DNA of 64,000 bases from Candidatus Moraniibacteriota bacterium (GCA_023261645.1 JAHFOO010000001.1:3871-67870), one strand, 5' to 3'. Shown: positions 7,004-47,697, counted from the stretch's first letter. Made by a program: numbers and translations. The notes: generated by a model from the letters alone, not told the origin.

Positions 7004-7657
7004 TTAGTGTACTTTCTTCGCTTCTTTGTTTTTTATATAATGCCGAACGATGAAGGATATTTTCTGATCATCGAGACGTTCTCGTTCTTGCTCGGTCAAC
7101 AGTTTTTCTGGGAAATATTGTACCGGAAATCGGAAGGAGATCATTTCTATATCTTCAAACGAAATTTTCCCTTTTCCTTTCAAAGAAACTTCTGCTGTTT
7201 CTTTTTTCGCATCCCATAGACTGGAATCTTTTTCCAGAGGTTGCAGTGAGGTGAGGTGGTCTCGTTTGAAAACGATGACGACTTTCACTATTGCTCCGAC
7301 TTCTTTCCCTGAAAATCCCTCTGCCATAGCAACGCGAAAGCCTTTCCTTGAGGCCATCTTGCACATGTTCGCTCTATCGCTATGGTTATCAATATCGATA
7401 TCCTGACCCGTTACCAGAGAGTCGATCACTTTCTGAAAGGACTCGCTTCGACACAAGAGGGATTGTTCCTGAAAAATATCTGAAACGGCATTCGCTTCAG
7501 CAAGATTGAGACCAGCGCTCTGCAAATCAGACTCGATGTCTTCAAAAACAGTACCAATCTCAGTCTTAGCCAGACTGAGATTCTTCAACATCCCACTCAG
7601 CCTCGCAGATTCTGTTTCCTTGTGAAAAGAAAAATCATTTCCTTCGAATGTATTCAT
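7004..7657 (-). CDS. Hypothetical protein
   Basis: 217-aa ORF, well delimited between the dksA-like gene and polA. No family recognised. Confidence 0.4.
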   Translation of the reverse strand: MNTFEGNDFSFHKETESARLSGMLKNLSLAKTEIGTVFEDIESDLQSAGLNLAEANAVSDIFQEQSLLCRSESFQKVIDSLVTGQDIDIDNHSDRANMCKMASRKGFRVAMAEGFSGKEVGAIVKVVIVFKRDHLTSLQPLEKDSSLWDAKKETAEVSLKGKGKISFEDIEMISFRFPVQYFPEKLLTEQERERLDDQKISFIVRHYIKNKEAKKVH

Positions 7658-7691
7658 AACGCTGTCACTAATATATCAAGTTTTCTCTCTT

Positions 7692-10304
7692 TCATATTTC
7701 TCCCCAGTTCTTCCCGATAGCGGTTTCAGCAATGAGTGGCACGTGAAGAGGGTAAGCCTCTTCCATCGTTTTTTTCACCGCTTGTGAAAATATTTCCGAT
7801 TGGTCTGCTCTCACTTCACAGATGAGTTCATCGTGTACTTGAAGCACCATCTTCACGCTCTCTTTGAAATCTCTTTCGATCAACTTTGCTACGGCAAGCA
7901 TTGAGAGCTTCATAATATCCGCTGCCAATCCTTGAATAGGCATATTGATAGCCATCCGTTCCGCGGAACGGGCCACCTGCACGTTACTGCTTGTTATTTC
8001 CGGAGTGTACCGACGCCGACCGAGTTCTGTTTCGACGAATCCTTTCTCACGGGCACCCTGTTTCATTTCTTCGATGAATTTTGTGACGCCGGCGAATTTT
8101 TTGAAGTACGCAACGATGAATTGCGCGGCGATGTTCTGATCGATTTTTGCGGCCTGTGCCAAACCATACGCCCCCATACCATACATAATACCAAAATTGA
8201 ACACTTTGGCCTGACGACGCATATCAGGTGTCACTGCTTCCGGTTTGACTTTGAAAACCACTGAGGCTGTTTTGGTATGGACATCCTCTTTATTCTTGAA
8301 TGACTTTGTCAGCGAGGCGTCTCCGCTCAGATGAGCCATAACGCGGAGCTCGATCTGAGAATAATCCGCTCCGACAAAAACGTATCCTGGTGTAGATTCA
8401 AACGATCCTCGCACCAGGACACTCCATTCTCCTCTCGCGGGAATATTCTGCAAATTCGGATCAGCCGAAGAGAGTCGTCCGGTAGAGGCTACTGCCTGAT
8501 AGTATGTGGTATGCAAACGTGAATGAGCGTCTACGAGAAGCGGGAGCGCATCGATATAGGTTGTCTTCAATTTGAACAACTCACGATAGCTTTCGATTTT
8601 CTGAATGATGGGGTATTCCTGTAATTTCTGTAATTCGAGGGAGGCAGTCGAAATACCTGTTTTTGTTTTTTTGATATTCGCCGTCGGTATCTGCAGATCT
8701 TGGAACAGAATTTCTGACAATTGTTTCGGAGAATTGATATTGAATTCACGACCAGAGAGTGTGTAGATATCTTTTTCCAATATGCCGAGTTCTTGTGCCA
8801 GTTTGACTGAAAGTGTCTGAAATTTCTCAGTATTCAAGATAACACCTTGCTCTTCCATATTGTACAGAATCGAAACAAGGGGCATCTCTATCTGTTCCAA
8901 TATAGTACGGAGTGTCTTTCCTTTCGTTTGTGTTTTGCTCACCTCATCGATTCGTGTCTCAAATATTTTTCGCAAAACAATGATCTTCTGTGCCGGCATC
9001 ACTATTTCTTCCTCACCGCATTCCTCGAGAATGATGTACGGAAAATCGACATTGCCACCGGAATTGAGGAGATAGGCTGCGAGCATCACATCAAATGTTA
9101 TTCCACGAAAAACGATTCCTTCTTTTTTGAAAAGATGAAGCAAACTTTTTCCATCATACACGATCTTTTTTCTCGCCTCGTCTTCCAAAAATTCTTTCAA
9201 AAACTTTTTTGTTTCTTCACTCCAAACGACGGTCGATTCCTCGTGGTCGTCTACTGCTATATGAATCATCTCTATCCCAACGCCAAAGAGTGTTCCTTCT
9301 CCCTGCTTTACATACACAGAAACCTCTTCTACTCCTCCTACAAATTTTTCTAGTTCTTCTTTTGTTGTTATCTTCTTTGTTTTTTGTTTACCGCTTTTTG
9401 TTTGTTGTTTATTGTTCTCTGTTAATTGTTGACTGTTATCTGAAATTCGCTTGATCAAGCTGAAAAAACTGAGTTCTTGGAAAAGATTCGTTACCATTTT
9501 TCGGTCGAAATCCTTCGTCACACAAGCTGGGAGATCGAGTGTCACTGGTGTCTCAAGGTGGATGGTTCCGAGCTCTTTGGAAAGAAAAGCTTGCTCTTTG
9601 TCCGTCTCCAATTTTTTCCGAACAGATTCTTTTATCTCGGAAAGGTGTTCGTAGATATTTTCGAGCGTGGAAAAAGACTGGAGCAAGGTCGTCGCTGTCT
9701 TGGCGCCGATACCCGTCACACCAGGAATGTTGTCCGATGCGTCACCGGCCAGTCCTTTGTAATCCGGAATCTGCGTCGCTCCAAATCCATATTTTTCTGT
9801 CACTGCTTTCTCATCATAGAGGACGATGTCTTTGATGCCCTTCCGGAGCATAAATACTTTCACCATCGGCGTCACGAGCTGAAGCTCGTCGCTATCGCCT
9901 GTCACGATGATCACCTGGACGTTTTCTTTTTCTGCCTGACGCGCCAGCGTGCCGATACAGTCATCGGCTTCAAAACCTGCCTGTTCGTAAATCGGGATAT
10001 TGAACGCAGCCGTCATTTCTTTCACTCGTGAAATCTGTGCATAGAGGTCATCAGGGGCCTTCACTCGTGTCGCTTTGTAGTCTGCAGATTTCTCGTGGCG
10101 GAACGTCGGACCGGCCAGATCGAAACTCGCCGCAATATATTCCGGTTTGAATTTATCCAGGACAGACAGAAGGGTCAATGTAAATCCGTACACCGCGTTC
10201 ACGAGCTCCCCCTTCTTGGTCGTGAGCGGAGGCAGAGCGTGATACGCCCGGTGGATGAGCGCATTCCCGTCAATCAGCACGATGGTTTTGAGTTTCTTTT
10301 CCAT
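7692..10304 (-). CDS. polA: DNA polymerase I
   Basis: N-terminal 5'-3' exonuclease (IVLIDGNALIHRAYHA), a central 3'-5' exo-like region and a C-terminal polymerase domain (DYSQIELRVMAHLSGD, QVHDELI). 870 aa. Confidence 0.9.
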   Translation of the reverse strand: MEKKLKTIVLIDGNALIHRAYHALPPLTTKKGELVNAVYGFTLTLLSVLDKFKPEYIAASFDLAGPTFRHEKSADYKATRVKAPDDLYAQISRVKEMTAAFNIPIYEQAGFEADDCIGTLARQAEKENVQVIIVTGDSDELQLVTPMVKVFMLRKGIKDIVLYDEKAVTEKYGFGATQIPDYKGLAGDASDNIPGVTGIGAKTATTLLQSFSTLENIYEHLSEIKESVRKKLETDKEQAFLSKELGTIHLETPVTLDLPACVTKDFDRKMVTNLFQELSFFSLIKRISDNSQQLTENNKQQTKSGKQKTKKITTKEELEKFVGGVEEVSVYVKQGEGTLFGVGIEMIHIAVDDHEESTVVWSEETKKFLKEFLEDEARKKIVYDGKSLLHLFKKEGIVFRGITFDVMLAAYLLNSGGNVDFPYIILEECGEEEIVMPAQKIIVLRKIFETRIDEVSKTQTKGKTLRTILEQIEMPLVSILYNMEEQGVILNTEKFQTLSVKLAQELGILEKDIYTLSGREFNINSPKQLSEILFQDLQIPTANIKKTKTGISTASLELQKLQEYPIIQKIESYRELFKLKTTYIDALPLLVDAHSRLHTTYYQAVASTGRLSSADPNLQNIPARGEWSVLVRGSFESTPGYVFVGADYSQIELRVMAHLSGDASLTKSFKNKEDVHTKTASVVFKVKPEAVTPDMRRQAKVFNFGIMYGMGAYGLAQAAKIDQNIAAQFIVAYFKKFAGVTKFIEEMKQGAREKGFVETELGRRRYTPEITSSNVQVARSAERMAINMPIQGLAADIMKLSMLAVAKLIERDFKESVKMVLQVHDELICEVRADQSEIFSQAVKKTMEEAYPLHVPLIAETAIGKNWGEI

Positions 10305-12846: not shown

Positions 12847-15800
12847 ATGCCAAACGTCATTCATAAAAATACATCTCTCCATTCCGAAAAGGATGAACAG
12901 TCCCAATCGATTCTGAAAAAAATGCGTGATGTTTCGATTGAAGAGCACGCCTCTCGTCTGGCGAATGAAAGCGGGCTCCCCTATGCCGATCTTCACGTCT
13001 TTCCACTCAGTACCGAAGATGTTATTCTCGTCCCAGAAACAGACGCAAAAAAATTCGGTCTTGTTCTCTTCAGTAAACAAAATACCTCGGCTCGATTCGC
13101 CATCCTTGATCCTGCTCGAACCGAGACACTGCAGTTCATAAAGAATTTTTCTGACGAGCACGGATGGCAGGGAGAGATATATGTCGTTTCACAATCATCA
13201 CTCGACCATGCTTGGAAAGCGTATTCCAAACGAACCTTCATTGATAATCTCGATCTCGTTCGTGTCTCTCTTGGAGATGCTGACTTGGAAAAATTCGAAA
13301 AAGATTTCAGCGAACTCATTTCGTTGAAAAGTATCCATACAGCCAATACCTCGCGGGCGATGGAAATCATCCTGGCTGGTGCGAGAAAGCTCCGTTCGAG
13401 TGATGTTCACCTCGAGCCAGCAGAAGATTTTGTCCGTCTCCGTTACCGTATCGATGGCGTTCTGCAAGAAATAGGCAATCTCCCATTGGAGCGATACCAT
13501 CTGATGCTTTCTCGTATCAAAATGATCGCAAAAATGCGACTGAATGTTCGAAAAGTGGCTCAAGACGGTCATTTTTTCGTAAACCTTGAGAATAGGCGTA
13601 TAGACGTCCGTGTCAGCAGTATTCCTGGTAAATTCGGTGAAAACATCAATATGCGCCTCCTCTCTGGAGATGATGTCATCGTCGATGTCACCGCTCTTGG
13701 TCTCCGTGGTCTCGCCTATGATGAAGTGACCAAACAAATCACCAAACCGAACGGCCTCATATTGAATACCGGACCGACCGGCTCCGGAAAAACGACGACA
13801 CTCTATACGCTTCTCAATCATATCAACCAGCCTGATATAAAAGTCATCACCATCGAAGACCCAATCGAGTATACGATTCCGGGTATCGTTCAGACAGAAG
13901 TTTCCAAAAATAAAGATTACACGTTTGCGACAGCCCTCCGAGCCGTTGTTCGTCAAGATCCCGATATCATCTTGGTCGGAGAAATCCGTGATGACGAGAC
14001 AGCTGACATCACCGTCAATGCCGCACTGACTGGGCACCTGGTATTTTCGACCGTACACGCCAACAGTGCTGCTGCTGCTATCCCTCGTTTTATGGAACTC
14101 GGGGTAAAGCCGTCTCTTCTTTCTGCCTCACTCAATGTACTCATCGGACAACGCTTGGTTCGTGTTCTGTGCGAGTACTGCAAAGAATCCTACGAGCCGG
14201 CACACGAAACCATCGAATCCATTTTAAAACTCATCACCATCATTTCTCCGAAAGCAAAAATTTCTCTGCCTCAAAAGGTGACAGTTCTTTACAAATCGGT
14301 TGGTTGTGCGAAATGTCATTTCACAGGCTACCACGGACGAATCGGTATTTTTGAGGTGCTGACAATGACGAAAGATGTGACGGAAATAATAAACAATATG
14401 GGTACCGAACAGGAGATTCTTCGAACCGCTCTGGAAAATGGGATGGTGACGATGACACAGGACGGTATACTCAAAGCGCTCGACGGAATAACGACACTTG
14501 ATGAAGTATGGAGAGTTGCAGATCAGACAGAATCGCTTCGCACTATTTATGCCGAACTCATGCCAAGCGAACTTTCCCGTTCCACGTATATCACCGAAGA
14601 GATTTTTGAAAATACAAAGAAAAAAGTCTCCTCTCTCAAAGAGTTCACCGAATACATAAACGCAATCAATTCTCGATTGCGCATCCCGACGCTTTTTGCG
14701 GGAGCTATTCTGATGAAGGCCGCAGATATCCACATCGAACCAACAGGTGATACGGTAGATGTCCGTTTCCGTATCGACGGTATCCTCCAGACAGCAGTGA
14801 CTTTTCCTCTTACCGACTATCCCGTCCTTGTCGCAGAAATCAAGCTTGCTGCCGGACTCAAGTCAGGCGAACGCTCTGGAACAATCGATGGACGCTTCTC
14901 TCTTACATTCGAGAAGGAACTTCCCGACAAGACGAAGAAGATAGATATTCGACTTTCTATCATTCTTGGTGGCTTTGGAGAAACAATCGTGATGCGACTC
15001 CTCAACCAATCCATCGTCAAACTCGATCTCGATTCGCTCCATATCCGCAAACAAAATCTCGAGAATATCTATACAGCTATCAGCAAACCGCATGGCGTCA
15101 TCCTGAACACCGGCCCGACCGGCTCCGGAAAAACGACGACACTTTATAGTATTCTCTCAAAGCTCAACACTCCAGAAGTGAAAATCATTACTGTCGAAGA
15201 TCCGATAGAATATCAGATCCCCGGCATCCTCCAGACACAGACCAAAGAGAGTGAAAATTATACGTTTGCGACCGCACTACGTTCTCTTGTGCGCCAGAAT
15301 CCGAATATTCTTATGATTGGAGAAATCCGTGATGATGAAACTGCAAAGATGGCTATCCAAGCAGCCAGTACCGGACACCTGGTCCTCTCAACGCTCCATA
15401 CCAATTCGGCTGCCGGTGTCATCTCTCGTCTGAATGCTATGGGTGTGAGCAATGATGACATCGCCAATACCGGGAATCTTTTTATGGCACAACGATTGGT
15501 CCGGAAAGTATGTGAGCACTGCAAAAAATTTCTGCCACCGACAGAAGCAGAGAAAGAAATCATCGAAAAAACACTCAGTTCGATGCCGTCATCAAAAGAA
15601 CAGGAGATGCTTCTAAAAAATATCACTCTCCCTCATACGAACGGTTGCCCTTTTTGTGGTGGTACAGGCTTCTCAGGACAACTGGCAATCACCGAAACAC
15701 TTCTCATAGACAAGGACATCTCAGCACTTATCGCACAGGGAGCTCTTACAGGCGAGATTGAAGAAAAGGCTATAGAACTCGGAATGATTACGCTGACCCA

Positions 15801-15870
15801 AGACGGTATCCTCTCCGTACTTGAAGGAGACACAACTCTCGATGAAGTACGACGCGTGACAGATTTGTAG
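12847..15870 (+). CDS. pilB: Tandem-duplicated (fused) type II/IV secretion ATPase of the PilB/GspE family
   Basis: Two complete ATPase modules in one 1007-aa ORF. Module 1 has GLILNTGPTGSGKTTTLY, ILVGEIRDDETA, TGHLVFSTVHAN and CEYC...CAKC. Module 2 has GVILNTGPTGSGKTTTLY, LMIGEIRDDETA, TGHLVLSTLHTN and CEHC...CPFC. An N-terminal GspE-N-like domain is present. No stop or frameshift separates the halves. Confidence 0.8.
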   Translation: MPNVIHKNTSLHSEKDEQSQSILKKMRDVSIEEHASRLANESGLPYADLHVFPLSTEDVILVPETDAKKFGLVLFSKQNTSARFAILDPARTETLQFIKNFSDEHGWQGEIYVVSQSSLDHAWKAYSKRTFIDNLDLVRVSLGDADLEKFEKDFSELISLKSIHTANTSRAMEIILAGARKLRSSDVHLEPAEDFVRLRYRIDGVLQEIGNLPLERYHLMLSRIKMIAKMRLNVRKVAQDGHFFVNLENRRIDVRVSSIPGKFGENINMRLLSGDDVIVDVTALGLRGLAYDEVTKQITKPNGLILNTGPTGSGKTTTLYTLLNHINQPDIKVITIEDPIEYTIPGIVQTEVSKNKDYTFATALRAVVRQDPDIILVGEIRDDETADITVNAALTGHLVFSTVHANSAAAAIPRFMELGVKPSLLSASLNVLIGQRLVRVLCEYCKESYEPAHETIESILKLITIISPKAKISLPQKVTVLYKSVGCAKCHFTGYHGRIGIFEVLTMTKDVTEIINNMGTEQEILRTALENGMVTMTQDGILKALDGITTLDEVWRVADQTESLRTIYAELMPSELSRSTYITEEIFENTKKKVSSLKEFTEYINAINSRLRIPTLFAGAILMKAADIHIEPTGDTVDVRFRIDGILQTAVTFPLTDYPVLVAEIKLAAGLKSGERSGTIDGRFSLTFEKELPDKTKKIDIRLSIILGGFGETIVMRLLNQSIVKLDLDSLHIRKQNLENIYTAISKPHGVILNTGPTGSGKTTTLYSILSKLNTPEVKIITVEDPIEYQIPGILQTQTKESENYTFATALRSLVRQNPNILMIGEIRDDETAKMAIQAASTGHLVLSTLHTNSAAGVISRLNAMGVSNDDIANTGNLFMAQRLVRKVCEHCKKFLPPTEAEKEIIEKTLSSMPSSKEQEMLLKNITLPHTNGCPFCGGTGFSGQLAITETLLIDKDISALIAQGALTGEIEEKAIELGMITLTQDGILSVLEGDTTLDEVRRVTDL

Positions 15871-25899: not shown

Positions 25900-27051
25900 C
25901 TATTTTCTTATTGGCATCATAATATAAAGATAATTTTCCGTAAGAGTAGTATTTTCCTTATTTTGTATACGAAGTGCTGCAGGAGTAACTCCATCATTGG
26001 CTAAAAAGAGTATTTTTTCACTTACGAGAGCGTTTATTCCTTCTAAGACATAACGTGGATTAAAAACAATAGTAAGTGGTTCTGTACCTTGTTGTATTTC
26101 TATCGGTAATACGGTCTTATTTTCCCCTATTTCCTGCGATGCTGATGATATGGTACATATTTTTTCTTCTGGTTGAAAAAGAAGTGTTATTTCACCTGAA
26201 TTATATGAAGAAAAACTACTAGCTATTTTTACCGCTCTCTGAAAAGATTCTTTTTCTAAAATAACCTGAAGAGAGAAGCTTTTTGGAATTATTTGTTTAT
26301 AATCTGGGTATTTTCCATTTATAATCCTTGATACGATCTGTACACCATCTATTTCAAAAAATATCTGATTTTCTTTTAAAGCTATCTTTATATCCCTGCT
26401 TTCAGGCGTGATAATATGAATAATTTCATGTAACGTATTCCCAGGAATGATAAGTGATGGGTTTTGAGAAAGGAAATCATTATATCCACTTCCTTGATTT
26501 GTAAAAGGAATTATTTCTTCAGCAAGACGAAAACTGTCTGTGGTAGCAATTTCTATCATATCCTTATAAAAGAAAATATGTACGCCGGTAAGTTCAAGAC
26601 GTGCATTATTCAAACTAATACAGAATAAAAGCCGAGAAAGAGCTGTTTTAAGTTCTTGTGCTGGGAAAGAAAAGAAATATTCTTCTTTATATTCAGGAAT
26701 AATAGGAAAATCCTTCCCATCTAATCCTTTAATTTTTATTTGATAAGAAGTGCTTATTATTTTTAATCCTTCATTATCACTCTCTAATTCGAGAATATCT
26801 CCTAAAGGGAGATTATGTATAAAATTACTTAAAAGTTTTGCTGGTACAGCTATTTTTCCTTCTTTTTCTATTTTTGCTCCTATAGAGGTAATTATTCCTA
26901 TTTCCAAGTTTGTTGCAGAAATTTTTAACCTTCCATTTTCTGTTTCTATTAAGAAATTACTGAGAATAGGAAGAGTTGCTTGTTTTCCTGCTATTTTTTC
27001 CAAATAAGAAATGGCTCGATTAAGGTTTTCTTGTGTACAGATGAGTTTCAT
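25900..27051 (-). CDS. dnaN: DNA polymerase III beta sliding clamp
   Basis: MKLICTQENLNRAISYLEKIAGKQATLPILSNFLIE. 383 aa. Immediately downstream of dnaA. Confidence 0.9.
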   Translation of the reverse strand: MKLICTQENLNRAISYLEKIAGKQATLPILSNFLIETENGRLKISATNLEIGIITSIGAKIEKEGKIAVPAKLLSNFIHNLPLGDILELESDNEGLKIISTSYQIKIKGLDGKDFPIIPEYKEEYFFSFPAQELKTALSRLLFCISLNNARLELTGVHIFFYKDMIEIATTDSFRLAEEIIPFTNQGSGYNDFLSQNPSLIIPGNTLHEIIHIITPESRDIKIALKENQIFFEIDGVQIVSRIINGKYPDYKQIIPKSFSLQVILEKESFQRAVKIASSFSSYNSGEITLLFQPEEKICTISSASQEIGENKTVLPIEIQQGTEPLTIVFNPRYVLEGINALVSEKILFLANDGVTPAALRIQNKENTTLTENYLYIMMPIRK

Positions 27052-27312
27052 AAGACTATATATTAATAGTTTCTTTTAAATTATATTATAAAAACTTCTT
27101 ATTATCATTAGGGGTGTGAATATCTGGATAAGTCATAATAATGCTTTATAAAAGGTATTATTTTTAAGAATATAGAAATGTAATATAAAAGAAAAGTAAC
27201 AAAAGAATATTTTTTCAAAAATAATTAAAGAAGAATCATTTTTTATCCACAAAATTTCTTCTCTTATACAAACACTTTACACGACTTTTAGTGAGTTATA
27301 CAAGATTATACA
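27052..27312. other. Putative oriC / DNA-unwinding region (dnaA-dnaN intergenic)
   Basis: 260-bp region, extremely AT-rich, with a perfect DnaA box TTATCCACA at 27243-27251 and a one-mismatch box (TCTGGATAAG) near 27160. Confidence 0.5.
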
Positions 27313-28728
27313 TCAAACTGGATAATAAAGACGCTCTTTAAGAACATTTAACTCTTCTTTCAGGCGTGGATGAGAGTCTTTATTTTTATTTATTTTTTCA
27401 AATGCGTGTAGAGCAGTCGTATGATCTCTTCCTCCAAAAATATCACCGATGGTTGAAAATGGAGTTTGGAGTTCAGTACGAAGAATATACATCATTACCT
27501 GGCGTGGATGAGAAATTTCCTTTTTTCTTCCTTTTTTTATAATATCTTCTTTGGTAATATTATAAAATTCAGTAATAACACGAAAAATATCATCAACTTG
27601 AAGTGTCTTTTTATTATTTTCAATAAGTTGAGAAAGTATTTTCCCTGTATTTTCCAGTGTAGGTGAAATTTTATGAAATTCACAGAAAGCGATGACTCGA
27701 TTGAGAGCTCCTTCAAGTTCACGGATATTTTGAGTGATATTTTCGGCGATAAAACGTATAGCAGGAGTGTCTATAATAAAGCTTTTTTCAGCAATTTTTG
27801 ATTCCAAAATAGCCACTCTTGTTTCAAAGTTTGGACGACTAATATCAGTGATCATACCACCTTCAAAACGTGAACGGAGACGCTCTTCAAGGGTGGGGAT
27901 GGCTTTTGGTGGTCGGTCACTTGATATGACAATTTGTTTATTGAGTTGATAGAGTGAGTTGAAAATATGGAAAAATTCGTTCTGGGTCTTTTCTCTCCCG
28001 GAAAGGAATTGAATATCATCAATAATAAGAAGATCCATCTGTTGATAATATTCTTTAAATTTATCTATTTTCTGATTTTTAATGGAATCTACGAGTTCCG
28101 TCGTAAAACGTTCTGAGTTGATGTATTTAATTCTTTTTTCAGGTGAATTCTTCACCACCTCATTTCCAATAGACTGAAGCAGATGAGTTTTTCCCAACCC
28201 AACACCCCCATAAATAAAAAGAGGGTTATAAGCCATACCGAGATTTTGTGAAACCGCATAGCAAGCTGCACGTGCAAGATCGTTATTTTCTGCAACGATG
28301 AAGTTCTCAAATGTGTATCGATTATTAAGGTTGGTTTCATGAAAAAGAGGAGTGGATGGACCTGATTCAGTAAAAAATGGTTTTTCAATCAGTTTCTTTC
28401 GGACAAATCCTGTGGTCTCAGGTGATTTTATAGCATCTATATTTTTAAGAGAATCTACGGTTGGCAGAGAAGAAGTGAATTTTTCAGGTGCAATAACACA
28501 GCGGATGGTTTGGATATCACCATTAATACCTTTAAGAGCACGTAAAATATAGAGATTATACTTGTTTTCAAGCCATTCTTTTGCAAAACCATTTGGTACA
28601 CCAATGGTTATAATTCCATCTTGATTACTAACAATACTCGTGTTTTTAAACCACGTAATAAAATTAGCACGAGAAATAGAGAGCTCCATTTGTCCTAAAA
28701 CAGCCTTCCATAACTCCTCGTTTGTCAT
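27313..28728 (-). CDS. dnaA: Chromosomal replication initiator DnaA
   Basis: GGVGLGKTHLLQSIGNE Walker A, the AAA+ sensor and a C-terminal DNA-binding domain. 471 aa. Confidence 0.9.
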   Translation of the reverse strand: MTNEELWKAVLGQMELSISRANFITWFKNTSIVSNQDGIITIGVPNGFAKEWLENKYNLYILRALKGINGDIQTIRCVIAPEKFTSSLPTVDSLKNIDAIKSPETTGFVRKKLIEKPFFTESGPSTPLFHETNLNNRYTFENFIVAENNDLARAACYAVSQNLGMAYNPLFIYGGVGLGKTHLLQSIGNEVVKNSPEKRIKYINSERFTTELVDSIKNQKIDKFKEYYQQMDLLIIDDIQFLSGREKTQNEFFHIFNSLYQLNKQIVISSDRPPKAIPTLEERLRSRFEGGMITDISRPNFETRVAILESKIAEKSFIIDTPAIRFIAENITQNIRELEGALNRVIAFCEFHKISPTLENTGKILSQLIENNKKTLQVDDIFRVITEFYNITKEDIIKKGRKKEISHPRQVMMYILRTELQTPFSTIGDIFGGRDHTTALHAFEKINKNKDSHPRLKEELNVLKERLYYPV

Positions 28729-28926
28729 AAAATAAAGCTATTATCAGAGAGTATAAAAACATCAAATGGAATTATATCACGGCTGTACGGGTCGGCATAG
28801 GGTGAAAAAGTGTGTGAAGTGTGGATAAGCGGTGTATAACAAGAGAAAAGGCTCCATCATTGACTTTCTTTCTTTTTCTGGTAGACTGGAAAAACATCCA
28901 ATGACTTAAAATCTAATGTTTATTAT
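28729..28926. promoter_or_regulatory. dnaA upstream region with DnaA box (second oriC half / dnaA autoregulation site)
   Basis: Perfect box TGTGGATAA at 28820-28828, between divergent dnaA and rpmH. Confidence 0.4.
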
Positions 28927-29067
28927 ATGCCAAAAAGAACCTATCAACCAAAAACCCTCAAACGTGCCAGACGACACGGTTTTCTCGAGAGAATGAATAC
29001 TGTCGGGGGAAGAAAAGTAGTGGCAAATCGTCGTAGAGATGGAAGAAAAAAATTGACGGTAGCGTAG
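28927..29067 (+). CDS. rpmH: 50S ribosomal protein L34
   Basis: Not in the track (46 aa). Translation [46 protein letters not shown] is canonical L34. Confidence 0.85.
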
Positions 29068-29070
29068 GAT

Positions 29071-29418
29071 ATGTTGAAAAAAGGCTTTCGTTTGCGAAAA
29101 AAAGAGGATTTTGATAGAGTCTTTCGCTTCGGTAAGCCTCTTTTTTTTGGAGAAGAAATTGGCTGTCGATATTTACTTGATGCTCCGTCGATACGATTAG
29201 GATTTTCTCTTGGTAAAAAATATCTTCCTTTGGCTACTGATCGGAACAGATTTCGAAGAATATTTTCTGAAGTGTTTTATAATCATCAAGAAGAGTGGCC
29301 AAAATCGGGAGATATACTCTTTTTCCTTGTAAAAAGGCCAAAAAAGGTGGATACTAAACAAACAGAGAAAATGATGCAAAATCTTTTTCAAACCATAAAC
29401 AAAAATCGTAAAGTATAA
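29071..29418 (+). CDS. rnpA: RNase P protein component
   Basis: Basic 115-aa protein, LRKKEDFDRVFRFGK...RNRFRR, immediately after rpmH. Confidence 0.8.
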   Translation: MLKKGFRLRKKEDFDRVFRFGKPLFFGEEIGCRYLLDAPSIRLGFSLGKKYLPLATDRNRFRRIFSEVFYNHQEEWPKSGDILFFLVKRPKKVDTKQTEKMMQNLFQTINKNRKV

Positions 29419-29424
29419 AACAAT

Positions 29425-30156
29425 ATGATGCATATCTTTGATATTTCTATCTACCAACCGCTCTATAATGCCCTTATATTCTTTTATAATGTCGTTCCAG
29501 GGTATGATTTCGGTGTGGCTATTATACTCACAACGCTTGTTCTGAAGTCCCTCTTGATACCTCTTTCCAAGAAGCAGATAGAATCGCAGAAAAAGATGCA
29601 GGAATTACAGCCACAAATCAAGGAACTGCAACAAAAACACAAAAATGATAAAGAGAAACAAACAAAGGCGTTGATGGAATTTTATAAAGAGCATAAAACA
29701 AACCCATTTTCCGGATGCCTCCCGCTTATTATCCAACTTGTATTTCTTATTGCCATCTATCGAGTGATTATTAATATATCTCGGGCTGGTTTTGTGGTTA
29801 ATCCAAGCGATTTATATGCATTCATACCTGATCCGGGCGAGATCAATCACCTTTTTCTTCATTTTATAGACTTGACGAAACCAAACTATGTTTTAGCGTT
29901 CTTTTCTGCTATTGCTCAGTATTTTCAAACAAAGATGCTTTTCCAGAACCAAAGTAAGACTGAAACTAAAAACACCCCTTCCTCCGAACCCGACTTTGCG
30001 ACTATAATGAATAAGCAGATGCTCTATTTGGGTCCAGGACTGACATTCTTTATCGGAGCGACATTCCCGGCCGCCTTGGCTCTCTACTGGCTCTTCTCGA
30101 CACTGTTTATGCTTTTTCAGCAGATGGTTATCTTTAAACCGAAACAAGAGAAATAA
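29425..30156 (+). CDS. yidC: Membrane protein insertase YidC (short form)
   Basis: GCLPLIIQLVFLIAIYRVI and a C-terminal basic tail. The order rnpA-yidC-jag is conserved. Confidence 0.85.
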   Translation: MMHIFDISIYQPLYNALIFFYNVVPGYDFGVAIILTTLVLKSLLIPLSKKQIESQKKMQELQPQIKELQQKHKNDKEKQTKALMEFYKEHKTNPFSGCLPLIIQLVFLIAIYRVIINISRAGFVVNPSDLYAFIPDPGEINHLFLHFIDLTKPNYVLAFFSAIAQYFQTKMLFQNQSKTETKNTPSSEPDFATIMNKQMLYLGPGLTFFIGATFPAALALYWLFSTLFMLFQQMVIFKPKQEK

Positions 30157-42575: not shown

Positions 42576-43640
42576 TCAAGGATTGGGAGAAACAGCTGCA
42601 GGTGGTACGGGCGTATTTGTCTTGATGCCAACATTCACATTCTGATTCGTATTGCCCATATATTGCACTGCTGGACCGAAAGTTTTGGTCTGTGCATTCG
42701 TTGTCTGAGAGACTTGGCCATTGACATTGCTGATTTCCCGGTTGATTTTCGATTGTACTTCGCCGACTCCATTCTGGATGAGGTTGCTTACAAGTTTGTT
42801 TGCCATCGCCGATACGACTCCGCTCAGCAGTTCTCCTGGATTCGATGCTGTAGCAATCATTTTGTTGCCAAGGTCCTGAACGTTGGTAACAGCAGCCTGG
42901 ATAGTTCCTGCAGGCGCTACTACCATTCCATTTTTCTCCTCTGGCAAGAAACCGCCTGCTGATATAGCTTTGACCATTGCTGTTTGTCTATTCATCTCTA
43001 TTTGATTTTGATATGCCTCTTGTGCTTGCAACGTGTAGCCGAAAGTATTGTTGGCAGGATTTGAAAAGAAAGCATTCAATCCGCGGAAGTCGCCCGTTGC
43101 GAACATTGTTCCGGGATTCGGAGTGTATTCCTCCAAGTTATAGACTGCCGCACCGTTATTTTCTGTTGTCGCATTCTTTGCCGCAGAGATGAGATACGAA
43201 ACATAATTGTCACCAATACCATTGCTACCACCGGCAGGAGTATAGTTTGCCGTAGATCCTTTTCCGCGCGTGGTCATCGAGAAGAAATCATTCATATAAA
43301 GATTGGCATTCTGTGTCGGAGTTTGGTACAAGAATTCATTAAAATTCGTGATGTAAAGAGGTTGACTACCGGTTCCTCCACCGACCAGCTGACCCACCTT
43401 GCTGTTGAGCATCTGTATGGCTGTCATCTTCAGCGTTCCAAGGAGAGCTCCTTCAATCTGACGTTGAATCTGCTCCATCATTTGTTTTATCATAGCTGCT
43501 GCATATGTCGATCCCCAATAATCAGCCTTCGCCGTCTGAGGCATCGAAAAAAAGAGCATACCGATAAACAGCATCAGAAGAGAAGCCGTCATTTTTTTTA
43601 CGGTCTTTGTCGATTTTTTCTCCCCTTGTATTGAAATCAT
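42576..43640 (-). CDS. Secreted Gly/Asn/Thr/Gln-rich protein, hypothetical
   Basis: Signal peptide MTASLLMLFIGMLFFSMPQTAKA. Low-complexity extracellular protein. The start may be the internal Met at 43592. Confidence 0.4.
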   Translation of the reverse strand: MISIQGEKKSTKTVKKMTASLLMLFIGMLFFSMPQTAKADYWGSTYAAAMIKQMMEQIQRQIEGALLGTLKMTAIQMLNSKVGQLVGGGTGSQPLYITNFNEFLYQTPTQNANLYMNDFFSMTTRGKGSTANYTPAGGSNGIGDNYVSYLISAAKNATTENNGAAVYNLEEYTPNPGTMFATGDFRGLNAFFSNPANNTFGYTLQAQEAYQNQIEMNRQTAMVKAISAGGFLPEEKNGMVVAPAGTIQAAVTNVQDLGNKMIATASNPGELLSGVVSAMANKLVSNLIQNGVGEVQSKINREISNVNGQVSQTTNAQTKTFGPAVQYMGNTNQNVNVGIKTNTPVPPAAVSPNP

Positions 43641-43646
43641 AGATAT

Positions 43647-44633
43647 CTAGAAATTAATCGGAATCGTATCGATACCAAGATCAGATAATTTTTTGGATAC
43701 TTCATCACTGAATCCTGTAATACTGCCGAAGAACCCTTGTGCTTTGGAAAGCACGGCAATTTGTCCCAAAGGATCGGTATCCGAAGGCTTCAGCTCCCCT
43801 TTCAGTTGCATCGCGTATTCCGCCAATTGCAGAGCCTTCACGTGTATATCGAGCATTTTTTCTGGCACTTCTATGTCTTTCAATTCTGTCAACATTTTTT
43901 CTCCCCGATTGGACAACTCATCGAGAGCTTGCATATTGCCCGATGCCAGACCGGAGATGGATTCGAGTGAGAGGTTGTTAAAAATAGCGCTCAGATCATC
44001 CTGAGTCTGGAAAGTTTTCGGAGAATTGTTTGCAATCAAGTAAGAAAGCATCGTCAAATATTCCAGCGCATCTTTTTTTTCTTGCTCAGACTGTTTCTTA
44101 TCACTCAGGTTTTTTGATATCTTTTTTATCTTGATATCTTTTGTAGATATTTCGGGAAGGATCACTTCATCGATAGTGCCATTTGTCACTTTGTCGACAG
44201 AGTTGTTGATATCCTCCAGAGAAATTTCTTGTCCACTCTTGTCCGTGTTTTTGAGCAAAGAAGCGATTTCACCGGAAACTTGTTCTGTAAGATTGTTTGT
44301 CTTTTCTTGAGAAAATGTCGATGCACTTTCGACTACTTCTTTCACTACCTTGTCTCCCGGTGCGGGTTTCAATGGATCATAACCGCTCATCACTTCTATT
44401 CCATCACTGTAGCCATCACCATCCGTATCTTTGTTCATCGGATCTGTTCCATACAATTTCTCCTCATCGTTGCTCAGACCGTCTTGATCGGTATCCTGGA
44501 AAATATTTTTTGTACTCGATGTGTCCGCAGCAAAAACAAAGACAGTCGTACTCAGAATAAGTAAGCTAAAAAAAAGAAAAAACGTAAATTTCGTACCCTT
44601 TTCTGAAAAACTTGGAAAGAATATTTTCGACAT
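43647..44633 (-). CDS. Secreted protein with thrombospondin-type-3-like Ca-binding repeats
   Basis: Signal peptide, then DTDQDGLSNDEEKLYGTDPMNKDTDGDGYSDGIEV (DxDxDG repeats). Confidence 0.45.
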   Translation of the reverse strand: MSKIFFPSFSEKGTKFTFFLFFSLLILSTTVFVFAADTSSTKNIFQDTDQDGLSNDEEKLYGTDPMNKDTDGDGYSDGIEVMSGYDPLKPAPGDKVVKEVVESASTFSQEKTNNLTEQVSGEIASLLKNTDKSGQEISLEDINNSVDKVTNGTIDEVILPEISTKDIKIKKISKNLSDKKQSEQEKKDALEYLTMLSYLIANNSPKTFQTQDDLSAIFNNLSLESISGLASGNMQALDELSNRGEKMLTELKDIEVPEKMLDIHVKALQLAEYAMQLKGELKPSDTDPLGQIAVLSKAQGFFGSITGFSDEVSKKLSDLGIDTIPINF

Positions 44634-44866
44634 ATCTCTGTTTGTTTTTTATGTATTTTCATTATAACATAATTTCAAATAATTCAAATTACCACACTAG
44701 AGCACTCCTTTTTTTAGATACGAGGACAGAAAAAATGATTAAATTATTATAACACATATTATATATTTGTCAATATTTGAGATTACGTTGCCCGGATTGA
44801 ATATAACAGCAAAGAGTGATGCCATCTCTCTTCTGGAATTAAGTGTTTGTGTTTATTCTTCTGTAA

Positions 44867-45707
44867 ATGTTCCACGTGGAACATATACTCTGTTATTGAC
44901 ACGAAAAAGAAACGGATATGTTCCACGTGGAACATATATTGGCACAAAATAGGATGTGTAGATAGCATAAAGTAAATGGACGGCAGTTTAATAAGAAATC
45001 AATAAAGATATCGGATCTTTGTATAAAAAGATTATGTTCCACGTGGAACATAAACTGATGTCGTTCGTTAATAATCCAAGTAATGTTCCACGTGGAACAT
45101 CCTTTCGTGCCATCCAATCTTAATTGATTTTATGTTCCACGTGGAACATAAGAAATATAAATACAGATAAAAAGAGAGCAAGTTTCTATGATATGAATAA
45201 AAGGCTGATATAAAGTATTTTTATAGAAAATAACTAATTTCGACTTAAAGTGTTCAGTATATGTTCCACGTGGAACATATACTGAACATAATAATGCAAA
45301 GAAGATCAAAATGTTCCACGTGGAACATTTACTCTGTCACTGACACGAAAAATAAACGGATATGTTCCACGTGGAACATCTATATATCCCAGAACTCTAA
45401 TTTGTTCCACGTGGAACATTTTGGTACATAAATTGATGAATACAATACGATCATAAACAAGAATACGGATAAAAAGGCTCTATTGAAACATTTTTTTGAT
45501 ATTCTTCTTAAACTGGTGGGGGTAATAAGATGCTTTTTTAAGTATATTTCATCCAAGAGAGGTTTTTTTCGTGAGCCGAAGGATATAATAAAGGCTCAAG
45601 GAAACTGGAATTCATATATTGATATAGAATAATCTGGTATATGTTCCACGTGAAACATATACTAATACTGTTCGTTAATAATCCAAGTAATGTTCCACGT
45701 GGAACAT
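44867..45707. repeat. Array of 11 parS-type palindromes (ATGTTCCACGTGGAACAT), putative centromere
   Basis: Copies start at 44867, 44918, 45034, 45083, 45132, 45261, 45311, 45362, 45402 (5' flank variant), 45641 (TGTTCCACGTGAAACA, exact Bacillus-type parS) and 45690. Non-coding and AT-rich. Larger 69-bp and 40-bp units are duplicated. Confidence 0.8.
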
Positions 45708-45727
45708 ATGTTCTTTTTGTTGAGATA

Positions 45728-45756
45728 TTGACAAAGTTATACATTTATTGTATAAA
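45728..45756 (+). promoter_or_regulatory. Sigma-70-like promoter (TTGACA, 17 nt, TATAAA) downstream of the parS array
   Basis: Points toward the tRNA-Ala/tRNA-Arg pair. A second -10 (TATAAT at 46006) lies just before tRNA-Ala. Confidence 0.3.
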
Positions 45757-46016
45757 ATGAATAATAGAGAGGTATATTCAAATATTTGATATGTACACTA
45801 CCTATAGAGAGAGGAAGAGAAATAGTATAAAGGAGAAAAAAGTGGAAAATACCATAAATCGCTCAATTATAATAAAAGAATATATGTATGAAACTCTCAA
45901 GCATTGACGAATCGAGAAAACACAGTATGATAAGTAAAGTACCGCGTGTATAGTAAATGGAGGGGATAATGAAAAGGAACCTTTGTCATCTCAAATGGTT
46001 CTAATAGGTATAATTC

Positions 46017-46089
46017 GGGCCGTTGGCACAGTTGGTAGCGCGCCTCCATGGCATGGAGGAGGTCGCCGGTTCGAATCCGGCACGGTCCA
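46017..46089 (+). tRNA. tRNA-Ala (anticodon GGC)
   Basis: Acceptor GGGCCGT/ACGGTCC includes the G3:U70 Ala identity pair. Anticodon stem CCTCC/GGAGG, loop ATGGCAT. Confidence 0.8.
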
Positions 46090-46183
46090 CATCACATATT
46101 TCAATAGAGCCCTTGTTGTCCGATGAATACCGGTTTGCGTTAGGTAGAGAATAACCAGATATTCATTTATCGTAATACAAATT

Positions 46184-46255
46184 GCCTCCGTAGCTCAATG
46201 GATAGAGCTATCCCGTCCTAAGGGAGAAATGACAGTTCGATTCTGCCCGGGGGCA
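46184..46255 (+). tRNA. tRNA-Arg (anticodon CCT)
   Basis: Acceptor GCCTCCG/CGGGGGC, D-stem GCTC/GAGC, anticodon loop GTCCTAA, T-loop TTCGATT. Confidence 0.8.
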
Positions 46256-46278
46256 CAAAAAAGTCATTACGAGGCCCT

Positions 46279-46737: not shown

Positions 46738-47697
46738 ATGCAAAATTTTGACTCCGAATTCCATACTTTGAAATATATCATAGCGAAAGCAAATCGCATC
46801 TTGCTTTTTGCTCACAACCGACCAGATCCCGATACTGTCGGTGCCAATCTCGCTCTGTCAGAATACATCAAAAACTGTGGAAAACATGTGGATATTGCCT
46901 GTTTCGATGCTTTTCCTGATAATCTGAAGCATTTATTCGAGGGCACCTTCTTTCATCCGGAACAACTTGATCTTACGAGCTACGACGCTATCATCGCATC
47001 TGACAGTGTCGATCGCGGTTTTGATAAAGTCATAGGAACCCTTTCTGAAAAACAAGTTGTTGTCCTTATTGATCATCATCCAGATATACATATTACCGGT
47101 GATGTGAATATGGTGGATGCAGAATATTCTTCATCGTCTGAACTGCTCTATCTTTTCTTCTCGACAACAGAAATAAAAATCACCAAAGTGATGGCGACAA
47201 TGCTCCTTACAGGAATACTTTTTGATACCGGAGGACTACAACATTCCAACGTTTCTCCACGCGTTATGGAAATAGCATCGGATCTCGTGAAGAAAGGGGC
47301 TCCACTGGAAAAAATAACACAGATGATTTTCACAAAGAAAAATATCGGCGCGCTGAAGCTGTGGGGGAGAGCCTTCGAAAAAGCACACTTCAATAGAAAA
47401 AATGGGATGCTCGTCACGGCTATTACGAAAAAGGATGTGGAAGATTGCCAAGCCTCTCCGGAAGATATCTATCAGGTTTCTTCCATACTGAGCTCTGTTC
47501 CGGATACCAAGTTTGCTCTCGTCCTTTCGGAAAGAGATGATAATACGGTGAGAGCCAGTTTGCGATCATCAGATCAGGAAGGTGTTGATGTTTCGGCCAT
47601 AGCTCATCAGTTTGGTGGTGGGGGACACAAGCTTGCCAGCGGTTTCGAAATACAAGGGAAACTGTTGGAGACAGAAGAAGGCTGGACAATACAATAA
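46738..47697 (+). CDS. nrnA: Bifunctional oligoribonuclease/pAp phosphatase NrnA (DHH/DHHA1)
   Basis: Canonical motifs HNRPDPDTVGANLAL, IDHHP and GGGH (DHHA1). The rbfA-nrnA adjacency is conserved. Confidence 0.8.
   Translation: MQNFDSEFHTLKYIIAKANRILLFAHNRPDPDTVGANLALSEYIKNCGKHVDIACFDAFPDNLKHLFEGTFFHPEQLDLTSYDAIIASDSVDRGFDKVIGTLSEKQVVVLIDHHPDIHITGDVNMVDAEYSSSSELLYLFFSTTEIKITKVMATMLLTGILFDTGGLQHSNVSPRVMEIASDLVKKGAPLEKITQMIFTKKNIGALKLWGRAFEKAHFNRKNGMLVTAITKKDVEDCQASPEDIYQVSSILSSVPDTKFALVLSERDDNTVRASLRSSDQEGVDVSAIAHQFGGGGHKLASGFEIQGKLLETEEGWTIQ

Follow-up and report, generated by a model that had tools for sequence, protein, structure and literature searches.

Eleven parS-type palindromes form a dense array near the replication origin

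We describe a cluster of eleven parS-type palindromes within 841 bp (44867-45707) of a 64,000-nucleotide stretch of a Candidatus Moraniibacteriota bacterium genome (GCA_023261645.1, JAHFOO010000001.1:3871-67870), which we refer to as the window and from whose first nucleotide all of its coordinates are counted. We consider it probable that the array is an origin-proximal chromosomal centromere, composed of eleven putative high-affinity sites for a ParB protein of the Spo0J type. The identity of the motif, its position, its uniqueness in the DNA examined, its conservation in relatives and the duplications within the array were all observed directly.

A palindrome scan of the 64-kb window located the eleven sites, of which nine are the perfect 18-mer ATGTTCCACGTGGAACAT and two carry one mismatch; 10 of the 11 keep the 16-bp core TGTTCCACGTGGAACA intact. 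A preliminary description of this DNA had reported eleven perfect 18-bp palindromes, which was right for the number of sites but not for the perfection of two of them. The array and its sites, to which no strand is assigned, are as follows:

44867-45707: whole parS array, 11 sites (palindrome scan and repeat analysis)
44867-44884: site 1, perfect 18-mer ATGTTCCACGTGGAACAT
44918-44935: site 2, perfect 18-mer
45034-45051: site 3, perfect 18-mer
45083-45100: site 4, perfect 18-mer
45132-45149: site 5, perfect 18-mer
45261-45278: site 6, perfect 18-mer inside a 28-bp extended palindrome, AGTATATGTTCCACGTGGAACATATACT
45311-45328: site 7, perfect 18-mer
45362-45379: site 8, perfect 18-mer
45402-45419: site 9, core intact, outer base altered (TTGTTCC...)
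45641-45658: site 10, variant core TGTTCCACGTGAAACA, mismatch at ...GTGAAACAT
45690-45707: site 11, perfect 18-mer

Chance would supply 0.01 copies of the 18-mer (≤2 mismatches) per 64-kb window, and a count of eleven was reached in no shuffle. At the same tolerance no further copy was found in the rest of the window or in 17 kb of flanking contig (L133, L135), which makes the array the sole parS locus within the ~81 kb examined; the earlier description of it as a consolidated centromere is upheld for that stretch of DNA. Half-sites were not enriched outside the array (3 observed, 5.5 expected).

The sites follow one another at irregular start-to-start distances of 51, 116, 49, 49, 129, 50, 51, 40, 239 and 49 bp, and Tandem Repeats Finder detected no periodic array, in keeping with the earlier view that this is not an array of clustered regularly interspaced short palindromic repeats (CRISPR). 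Two modules of two sites each are present in duplicate, all copies on the plus strand:

44865-44939 (+): two-site module 1, copy A, 75 nt (family D3)
45309-45383 (+): two-site module 1, copy B, 93% identical to copy A (family D3)
45033-45100 (+): two-site module 2, copy A, 68 nt (family D4)
45640-45707 (+): two-site module 2, copy B, 91% identical to copy A (family D4)

These duplications bear out the proposal that the array grew by segmental duplication. In the 40-bp duplicated unit described previously, the copies differ in their first two bases (TC in one, CT in the other). When 31-nt segments around the sites were compared, they were 71-94% identical, with all differences lying outside the 18-mer.

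We also considered a role at the level of RNA, in which the palindromes would belong to a CRISPR-like array, to an array of the tandem interspaced guide RNA (TIGR) type or to a set of hairpin terminators. The palindromes do score as terminator-like hairpins (5 found, 1.0 expected), and TIGR arrays are known in bacteria that belong to the Candidate Phyla Radiation (CPR). However, the spacing is irregular (40-239 bp) and without periodicity, the spacers are themselves duplicated, and the repeated word is exactly that of parS and has no box C/D motifs. Rfam returned only chance-level matches to microRNA-precursor hairpins, far below threshold, Pfam scans of the window revealed neither a cas gene nor a tas gene (Nop domain), and the flanking promoters point away from the array. 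We give such a role almost no credence.

The array lies in an AT-rich, non-coding gap of 1.38 kb (44634-46016, no strand assigned), with a GC content of 0.29-0.33 compared with ~0.44 for the window. No open reading frame (ORF) in it exceeds 74 aa, and the longest is made up of parS-encoded peptides; the array DNA is non-coding and AT-rich, as first described.

The motif matches known parS sites

The 16-mer of the array, TGTTCCACGTGGAACA, corresponds letter for letter to parS2 and parS3 of Pseudomonas aeruginosa (PMC4368675) and to parS of Pseudomonas putida (PMC7022226), and it is one base away from the consensus of Myxococcus xanthus (PMC3899335). This identity upholds the original assignment of the motif to parS. 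Tested against the consensus tGTTNCACGTGAAACa, ten sites deviate at one symmetric position, as had been stated for the core in general, and one site is exact. The exact copy is site 10 (45641), which has 0 mismatches to the Bacillus-type consensus TGTTNCACGTGAAACA and had been correctly singled out as a Bacillus-type parS.

To place the motif among other bacteria, a genome scan was made with one genome per species, two such 16-mers 20-50 bp apart being sought in 8-kb chunks, and it yielded at least 120 loci. Among the matches listed, paired 16-mers occur in Acidobacteriota, Bacteroidota, Verrucomicrobiota, Clostridia, Proteobacteria and CPR bacteria, and parB lies within the same 8-kb chunk at 50 of 120 loci. 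Closely packed copies of the 16-mer accompany ParB wherever the context is visible.

Position relative to the origin and to neighbouring genes

Genes and sequence features that mark the origin lie to the left of the array:

25900-28728 (-): dnaN and dnaA, origin markers
27243-27251 (+): perfect DnaA box between dnaN and dnaA
28820-28828 (-): perfect DnaA box upstream of dnaA

Both dnaN (25900-27051) and dnaA (27313-28728) are on the minus strand and face rnpA-yidC-jag. The distance from the dnaA start codon (28728) to the start of the array is 16.1 kb, and the cumulative GC skew has its minimum at ~24-26 kb. Together with the DnaA boxes, these positions agree with the earlier placement of the array close to oriC. 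The dnaN-dnaA-rnpA region (26001-30000) is itself markedly AT-rich. Its GC content is 0.31 from 26 to 28 kb and 0.36 from 28 to 30 kb, compared with ~0.44 elsewhere, and this low-GC stretch takes in coding sequence besides intergenic origin DNA.

To the left of the array the gene order is rpsA-gmk-tilS-ftsH, a membrane protein, tRNA-Val and two signal-peptide proteins, one of them with bacterial thrombospondin type 3 (TSP3) repeats; to the right it is tRNA-Ala, tRNA-Arg, rbfA, a gene for an NrnA-like DHH phosphoesterase, and udg. The immediate neighbours and the promoter-like sites, the latter known as consensus matches only, are:

43647-44633 (-): left neighbour, 328-aa signal-peptide protein with TSP3 repeats, a synteny anchor
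44746-44773 (-): left promoter-like site, 12/12, with TG extension, directed toward the TSP3-repeat protein gene (consensus match only)
45904-45931 (+): right promoter-like site, 10/12, directed toward tRNA-Ala (consensus match only)
46017-46256 (+): right neighbours, tRNA-Ala(GGC) and tRNA-Arg(CCU)
46738-47697 (+): NrnA-like DHH phosphoesterase gene, a synteny anchor and the query for relatives

The two genes for signal-peptide proteins occupy 42576-44633 on the minus strand, and with the tRNA pair at 46017-46256 they reproduce the flanks originally reported, two secreted-protein genes on one side and a tRNA pair on the other. Because the array is situated between divergent promoter-like sites, transcription through it is improbable, and the zone between these sites, including the array, is probably untranscribed.

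This arrangement raises the question of whether the palindromes could be operators, bound by another CACGTG-binding transcription factor that controls the divergent promoters of the TSP3-protein gene and of tRNA/rbfA. The array does lie between two divergent promoter-like sites, its nearest sites being ~95 bp from the left and ~200 bp from the right one. Nevertheless, the majority of the sites lie hundreds of bp away from both promoters, the match to parS spans all 16 bp and thus reaches beyond the CACGTG core, and in 81 kb no other promoter has a copy. The copy number moreover ranges from 6 to 17 among relatives, and coding arrays in other lineages are built from this word too (see below). 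An operator function is highly improbable in our judgment.

Conservation and turnover in relatives

The window has gene content like that of CPR/Patescibacteria, including T4SS_pilin, DUF3048, FemAB and compact housekeeping genes, and the host looks like a member of the Parcubacteria group within the CPR. Its NrnA-like protein (46738-47697) falls in a 90%-identity cluster with PIX92259.1, which is labelled 'Candidatus Kuenenbacteria bacterium', and nearly all homologues at 62-86% identity are labelled Moranbacteria or Moraniibacteriota. The labels given by depositors for the NrnA-like cluster thus conflict, with Kuenenbacteria on one side and Moranbacteria/Moraniibacteriota on the other.

An independent assembly (ENA ERZ27279942, k141_1669754; L001) has a layout identical to that of the window, and a Logan contig has part of it. 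Because the independent assembly has the identical layout, the structure of the array is not an accident of assembly. Many short metagenome contigs of the clade (L125-L132; also L002) terminate inside the parS array, which evidently breaks short-read assemblies. Origin regions in metagenome-assembled genomes may accordingly be fragmented right at the centromere, and site copy numbers taken from short-read assemblies call for caution.

Relatives were found through their NrnA-like proteins, which are 67-90% identical to that of the window:

L123, L124, L129: NrnA-like protein in the same 90% cluster; 13 sites
L220: NrnA-like protein 85% identical; 17 sites
L221: NrnA-like protein 79% identical; 6 sites
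L222: NrnA-like protein 67% identical; 16 sites

The arrays of these relatives occupy the same locus, from the TSP3-repeat protein gene to rbfA/nrnA, and their cores are almost all perfect. Four relatives thus have syntenic arrays of 6-17 sites, in which the spacers have turned over. Between the window and L123, for example, the flanks share 84-89% DNA identity, and the interior of the array can be aligned only at the palindromes; the only orthologous site that the two share is the rbfA-proximal variant (site 10, TGTTCCACGTGAAACA). Since the flanks align while the interior aligns only at the palindromes, and since the differences between sites fall outside the 18-mer, selection or homogenisation appears to act on the sites. 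The sites are thus kept, and it is the spacers and the copy number that change, via duplication and loss of modules. Across the arrays of the window and its relatives, the minimum centre-to-centre spacing is 34 bp and the commonest short spacing is 49-51 bp, distances that would be compatible with simultaneous occupancy of neighbouring sites.

Some related arrays are embedded in a Wzy_C-like gene

At other Parcubacteria/Moranbacteria loci, an intact gene for a polytopic Wzy_C-like membrane protein (Pfam Wzy_C, the O-antigen-ligase family) contains 7-12 in-frame parS sites. The genes with embedded parS sites are:

L016, 6840-7934: Wzy_C-like gene; the full gene is P0145, L217, 10001-11653
L014, 6189-7973: Wzy_C-like gene
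L219, 10001-11677: Wzy_C-like gene
L223, 10001-11866: Wzy_C-like gene

All 12 sites of L217 and all 7 sites of L219 are within the Wzy_C-like gene, and outside the gene no parS was found in the remaining 20 kb of the three loci counted, L217, L218 and L219. All three frames are used in reading the embedded 16-mer, giving ..FHVE.., ..CSTWN.. and ..VPRGT..; this is independent evidence that it is the DNA word and not a peptide that is kept. The encoded peptides fall at homologous alignment columns in Wzy_C-like proteins that are 36-51% identical, almost exclusively in hydrophilic loops between predicted membrane helices. At least three parS-type peptides are present in 102 of the best 120 Wzy_C-like homologues, a proportion obtained by a word-indexed search that is biased toward them. 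The array-bearing gene adjoins gyrA and lactamase_B, which in turn stand back to back with rpsA-kinase-tilS-ftsH; the neighbourhood is the same as that of the array in the window. We found no literature on parS arrays embedded in Wzy_C-like genes.

One relative of the window, L220 (GCA_049287005.1, JBAQEZ010000003.1), has all of its 17 sites within an intact 628-aa Wzy_C-like ORF (7137-9023, minus strand). This embedded array is at the same locus as that of the window, and the NrnA-like proteins of the two are 85% identical. The arrays of the window, L123, L221 and L222 are non-coding and have no detectable Wzy_C-like remnant. The possibility that the gap in the window is a decayed Wzy_C gene was pursued by tblastn with the L016, L014 and L220 proteins, their parS peptides masked, and no remnant was recovered.

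These findings bear on the explanation that the array is a functionless relic, left by the decay of a Wzy_C-like gene with in-frame parS-like repeats and now drifting neutrally. Such an origin could draw on the intact ORF with 17 sites at the same locus in L220 and on the wide occurrence of gene-embedded arrays in related CPR lineages. Neutral decay, however, would have eroded the 16-mers together with the gene, and in the window 10 of 11 cores are perfect with no trace of the gene after masking of the parS peptides. The module duplications are recent (91-93% identity), and non-coding arrays of 6-16 perfect sites have been kept in three further relatives. We regard a neutral relic as very unlikely.

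Paralogous winged-helix proteins of the TrmB family (~240-270 aa) are encoded 1-9 kb from the gene-embedded arrays, with up to four per locus:

L014: 4764-5489
L217: 6201-6929
L219: 658-1395, 3178-3897
L223: 836-1588, 2117-2923, 4621-5355, 12618-13346

No TrmB-family homologue was found in the DNA examined for the clade of the window itself.

It is conceivable, though we think it rather unlikely, that in this CPR clade the centromere and the conserved Wzy_C-like membrane-protein gene are functionally coupled and not just adjacent. If so, an embedded centromere might, for example, hold the origin region at the membrane because transcription, translation and membrane insertion of the protein are coupled, and the non-coding array of the window would be a derived, 'liberated' form. 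The gene-embedded arrays offer a possible clean natural experiment on selection at the DNA level as opposed to the protein level, and these sister arrays are a more surprising lead than the array in the window.

A proposed model for ParB loading and the search for ParB and ParA

The reading of the array as an origin-proximal centromere extends, by analogy with the established ParABS model, to ParB binding, clamp loading and a role in segregation, all of which we infer from that model. ParB dimers bound to cytidine triphosphate would recognise each 16-bp palindrome through their helix-turn-helix; binding to parS would close the N-terminal gate of ParB, and the resulting clamp would slide onto flanking DNA and leave the site free for the next round. 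Eleven loading sites in 0.84 kb could in this way build one compact, ParB-rich partition complex ~16 kb from oriC, which may be moved by ParA, used for SMC loading, or both. The array itself evolves by the gain, through duplication, and the loss of two-site modules, with sites 49-51 bp apart, while the palindromes stay invariant.

Several results weigh against this model. Neither ParB nor ParA was found between window coordinates -7.8 and +73.2 kb (81 kb, which takes in 7.8 kb of contig to the left of the window and 9.2 kb to the right) by a Pfam search of ~60 window ORFs, by tblastn with ParB and ParA from Acidobacteriaceae, or by a ParB hidden Markov model (HMM) applied to six-frame ORFs; parA and parB had already been reported as not visible in the window. 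The same was true of the other CPR loci examined, including five loci of 21-22 kb around related arrays, and no ParA-type match (AAA_31/CbiA) was obtained in the 81 kb or at those other CPR loci. No ParB or ParA occurs within 10 kb of the arrays at seven related CPR loci, and on four CPR contigs the 10 kb to each side of the gene-embedded arrays showed no ParB. With a profile built from 15 ParB sequences, the best 120 matches contained no CPR ParB and were only of Firmicutes and Acidobacteria type, and a metagenome scan with the ParB profile gave none that was recognisably CPR among the best 80 loci. Among the papers searched, none mentions both ParABS and Patescibacteria, and we found nothing relevant on ParB or parS in CPR bacteria. 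Finally, the perfect identity of the sites could stem in part from recent duplication or gene conversion and not from selection on each site.

To our knowledge, ParB is near-universal. Its presence in this genome is an expectation from that near-universality and not a result of our analysis. More extremely, the lineage might lack a canonical ParB, with another protein reading the sites.

Comparison with known clusters of parS sites

The preliminary description held that chromosomal parS sites are normally few and scattered. As a baseline for density, we used 80 metagenome loci (544 kb) selected only for encoding ParB, in which the maximum number of parS sites per kb was 0-2 at 77 loci, 3 at two and 5 at one. 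Eleven sites in 0.84 kb are far in the tail of this distribution, a rare density that nonetheless has precedent, both in M. xanthus and in the dense arrays of several phyla; on this point the preliminary description needs correction.

In M. xanthus, 22-24 near-identical copies of parS, TGTTCCACGTGGAAC(G/A), are contained in ~3 kb (Iniesta 2014, PMC3899335; Harms et al. 2013, PMC3778016). This cluster is 30-35 kb from ori and ~4 kb upstream of parA/parAB, binds ParB in vitro and serves as a single, consolidated chromosomal centromere (PMC3899335; PMC3778016). The two systems are alike in having many near-identical parS copies packed into a few kb near ori. They differ in that parAB is ~4 kb away in M. 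xanthus, whereas here the nearest 52 kb on the left and 27 kb on the right are free of par genes, and in density, which is ~7 sites per kb there and 13 per kb here, or about twofold higher. The M. xanthus genome is 9.1 Mb, while that of the host is probably <1 Mb (contigs of relatives are 0.65-0.94 Mb), and the sites there are demonstrated ParB-binding sites, those here putative ones.

With P. aeruginosa and P. putida the array shares the 16-bp identity to parS2/parS3 and a position near the origin. P. aeruginosa, however, has four origin-proximal sites (parS1-4) compared with eleven in 0.84 kb here, and its ParB binds hundreds of half-sites, which are not enriched outside the array in our DNA. 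One parS site is enough for segregation in that organism (PMC4368675, PMC7022226).

A parallel outside the CPR came from a contig of Acidobacteriaceae (L115, CAWCRD010000006.1), where rsmG is followed by 14 parS-type sites (≤1 mismatch; 1026-2760) and then by parA and parB. Those sites occupy an intergenic stretch of 1.7 kb, and 11 of the 14 fall within 1 kb. The array differs from ours in that parAB follows it directly, in the canonical gidB-parAB setting, and in that the genome is high in GC. We know of no published description of it. Edaphobacter and Bdellovibrionales contigs (L068, L065, L067) also have 7-8 parS-type sites (≤1 mismatch). Among the matches listed, arrays of 7-14 sites are thus present in Acidobacteriaceae, Edaphobacter, Bdellovibrionales and CPR genomes. 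Very dense parS arrays recur in Acidobacteriota, Bdellovibrionales and the CPR and are not peculiar to Myxococcus, and the array in the window is an unusually dense instance of the known clustered chromosomal parS centromere and not a new system.

The sopC centromere of plasmid F consists of regular tandem 43-bp units beside sopAB, on a plasmid and with a different binding sequence. The array resembles sopC and other plasmid or phage centromeres in that several ParB-type palindromes are contained in less than 1 kb of non-coding DNA, and such a resemblance had been proposed. It departs from them in its irregular, aperiodic spacing, in having no adjacent par operon, in its conserved chromosomal housekeeping context and in its lack of similarity to plasmid or phage records, since BLAST of the array against plasmid and phage collections returned no match. 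These differences led us to set the comparison aside. They bear equally on two ideas of a mobile origin: that the array serves an integrated plasmid, phage or other mobile element as its partition site, or that it is a selfish repeat of the dispersed kind, such as a miniature inverted-repeat transposable element (MITE) or a repetitive extragenic palindrome (REP). tRNA genes do flank the region, and both repeats and module duplication are present, as might be expected of mobile DNA. Yet the synteny rpsA-gmk-tilS-ftsH...array...rbfA-nrnA-udg is conserved down to 67% identity of the NrnA-like protein, and the neighbourhood contains no integrase gene, no replication gene and no par gene. Restriction of the repeat to one locus in the 81 kb examined also argues against REP, MITE or uptake sequences. 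A mobile origin of either kind is extremely unlikely.

CPR/Patescibacteria make up a large share of bacterial diversity, and their chromosome organisation and segregation are almost wholly unstudied. For these bacteria the array offers a candidate centromere that is concrete, conserved and simple to synthesise. As a natural 11-site candidate platform for ParB loading in less than 1 kb, it is amenable to study without culturing the organism.

An additional gene of the window

Elsewhere in the window, a 1007-aa protein is encoded at 12847-15870 on the plus strand. It contains two T2SSE (PilB-type secretion ATPase) stretches and a MshEN domain, and has the appearance of a type IV pilus ATPase that has been duplicated or fused.

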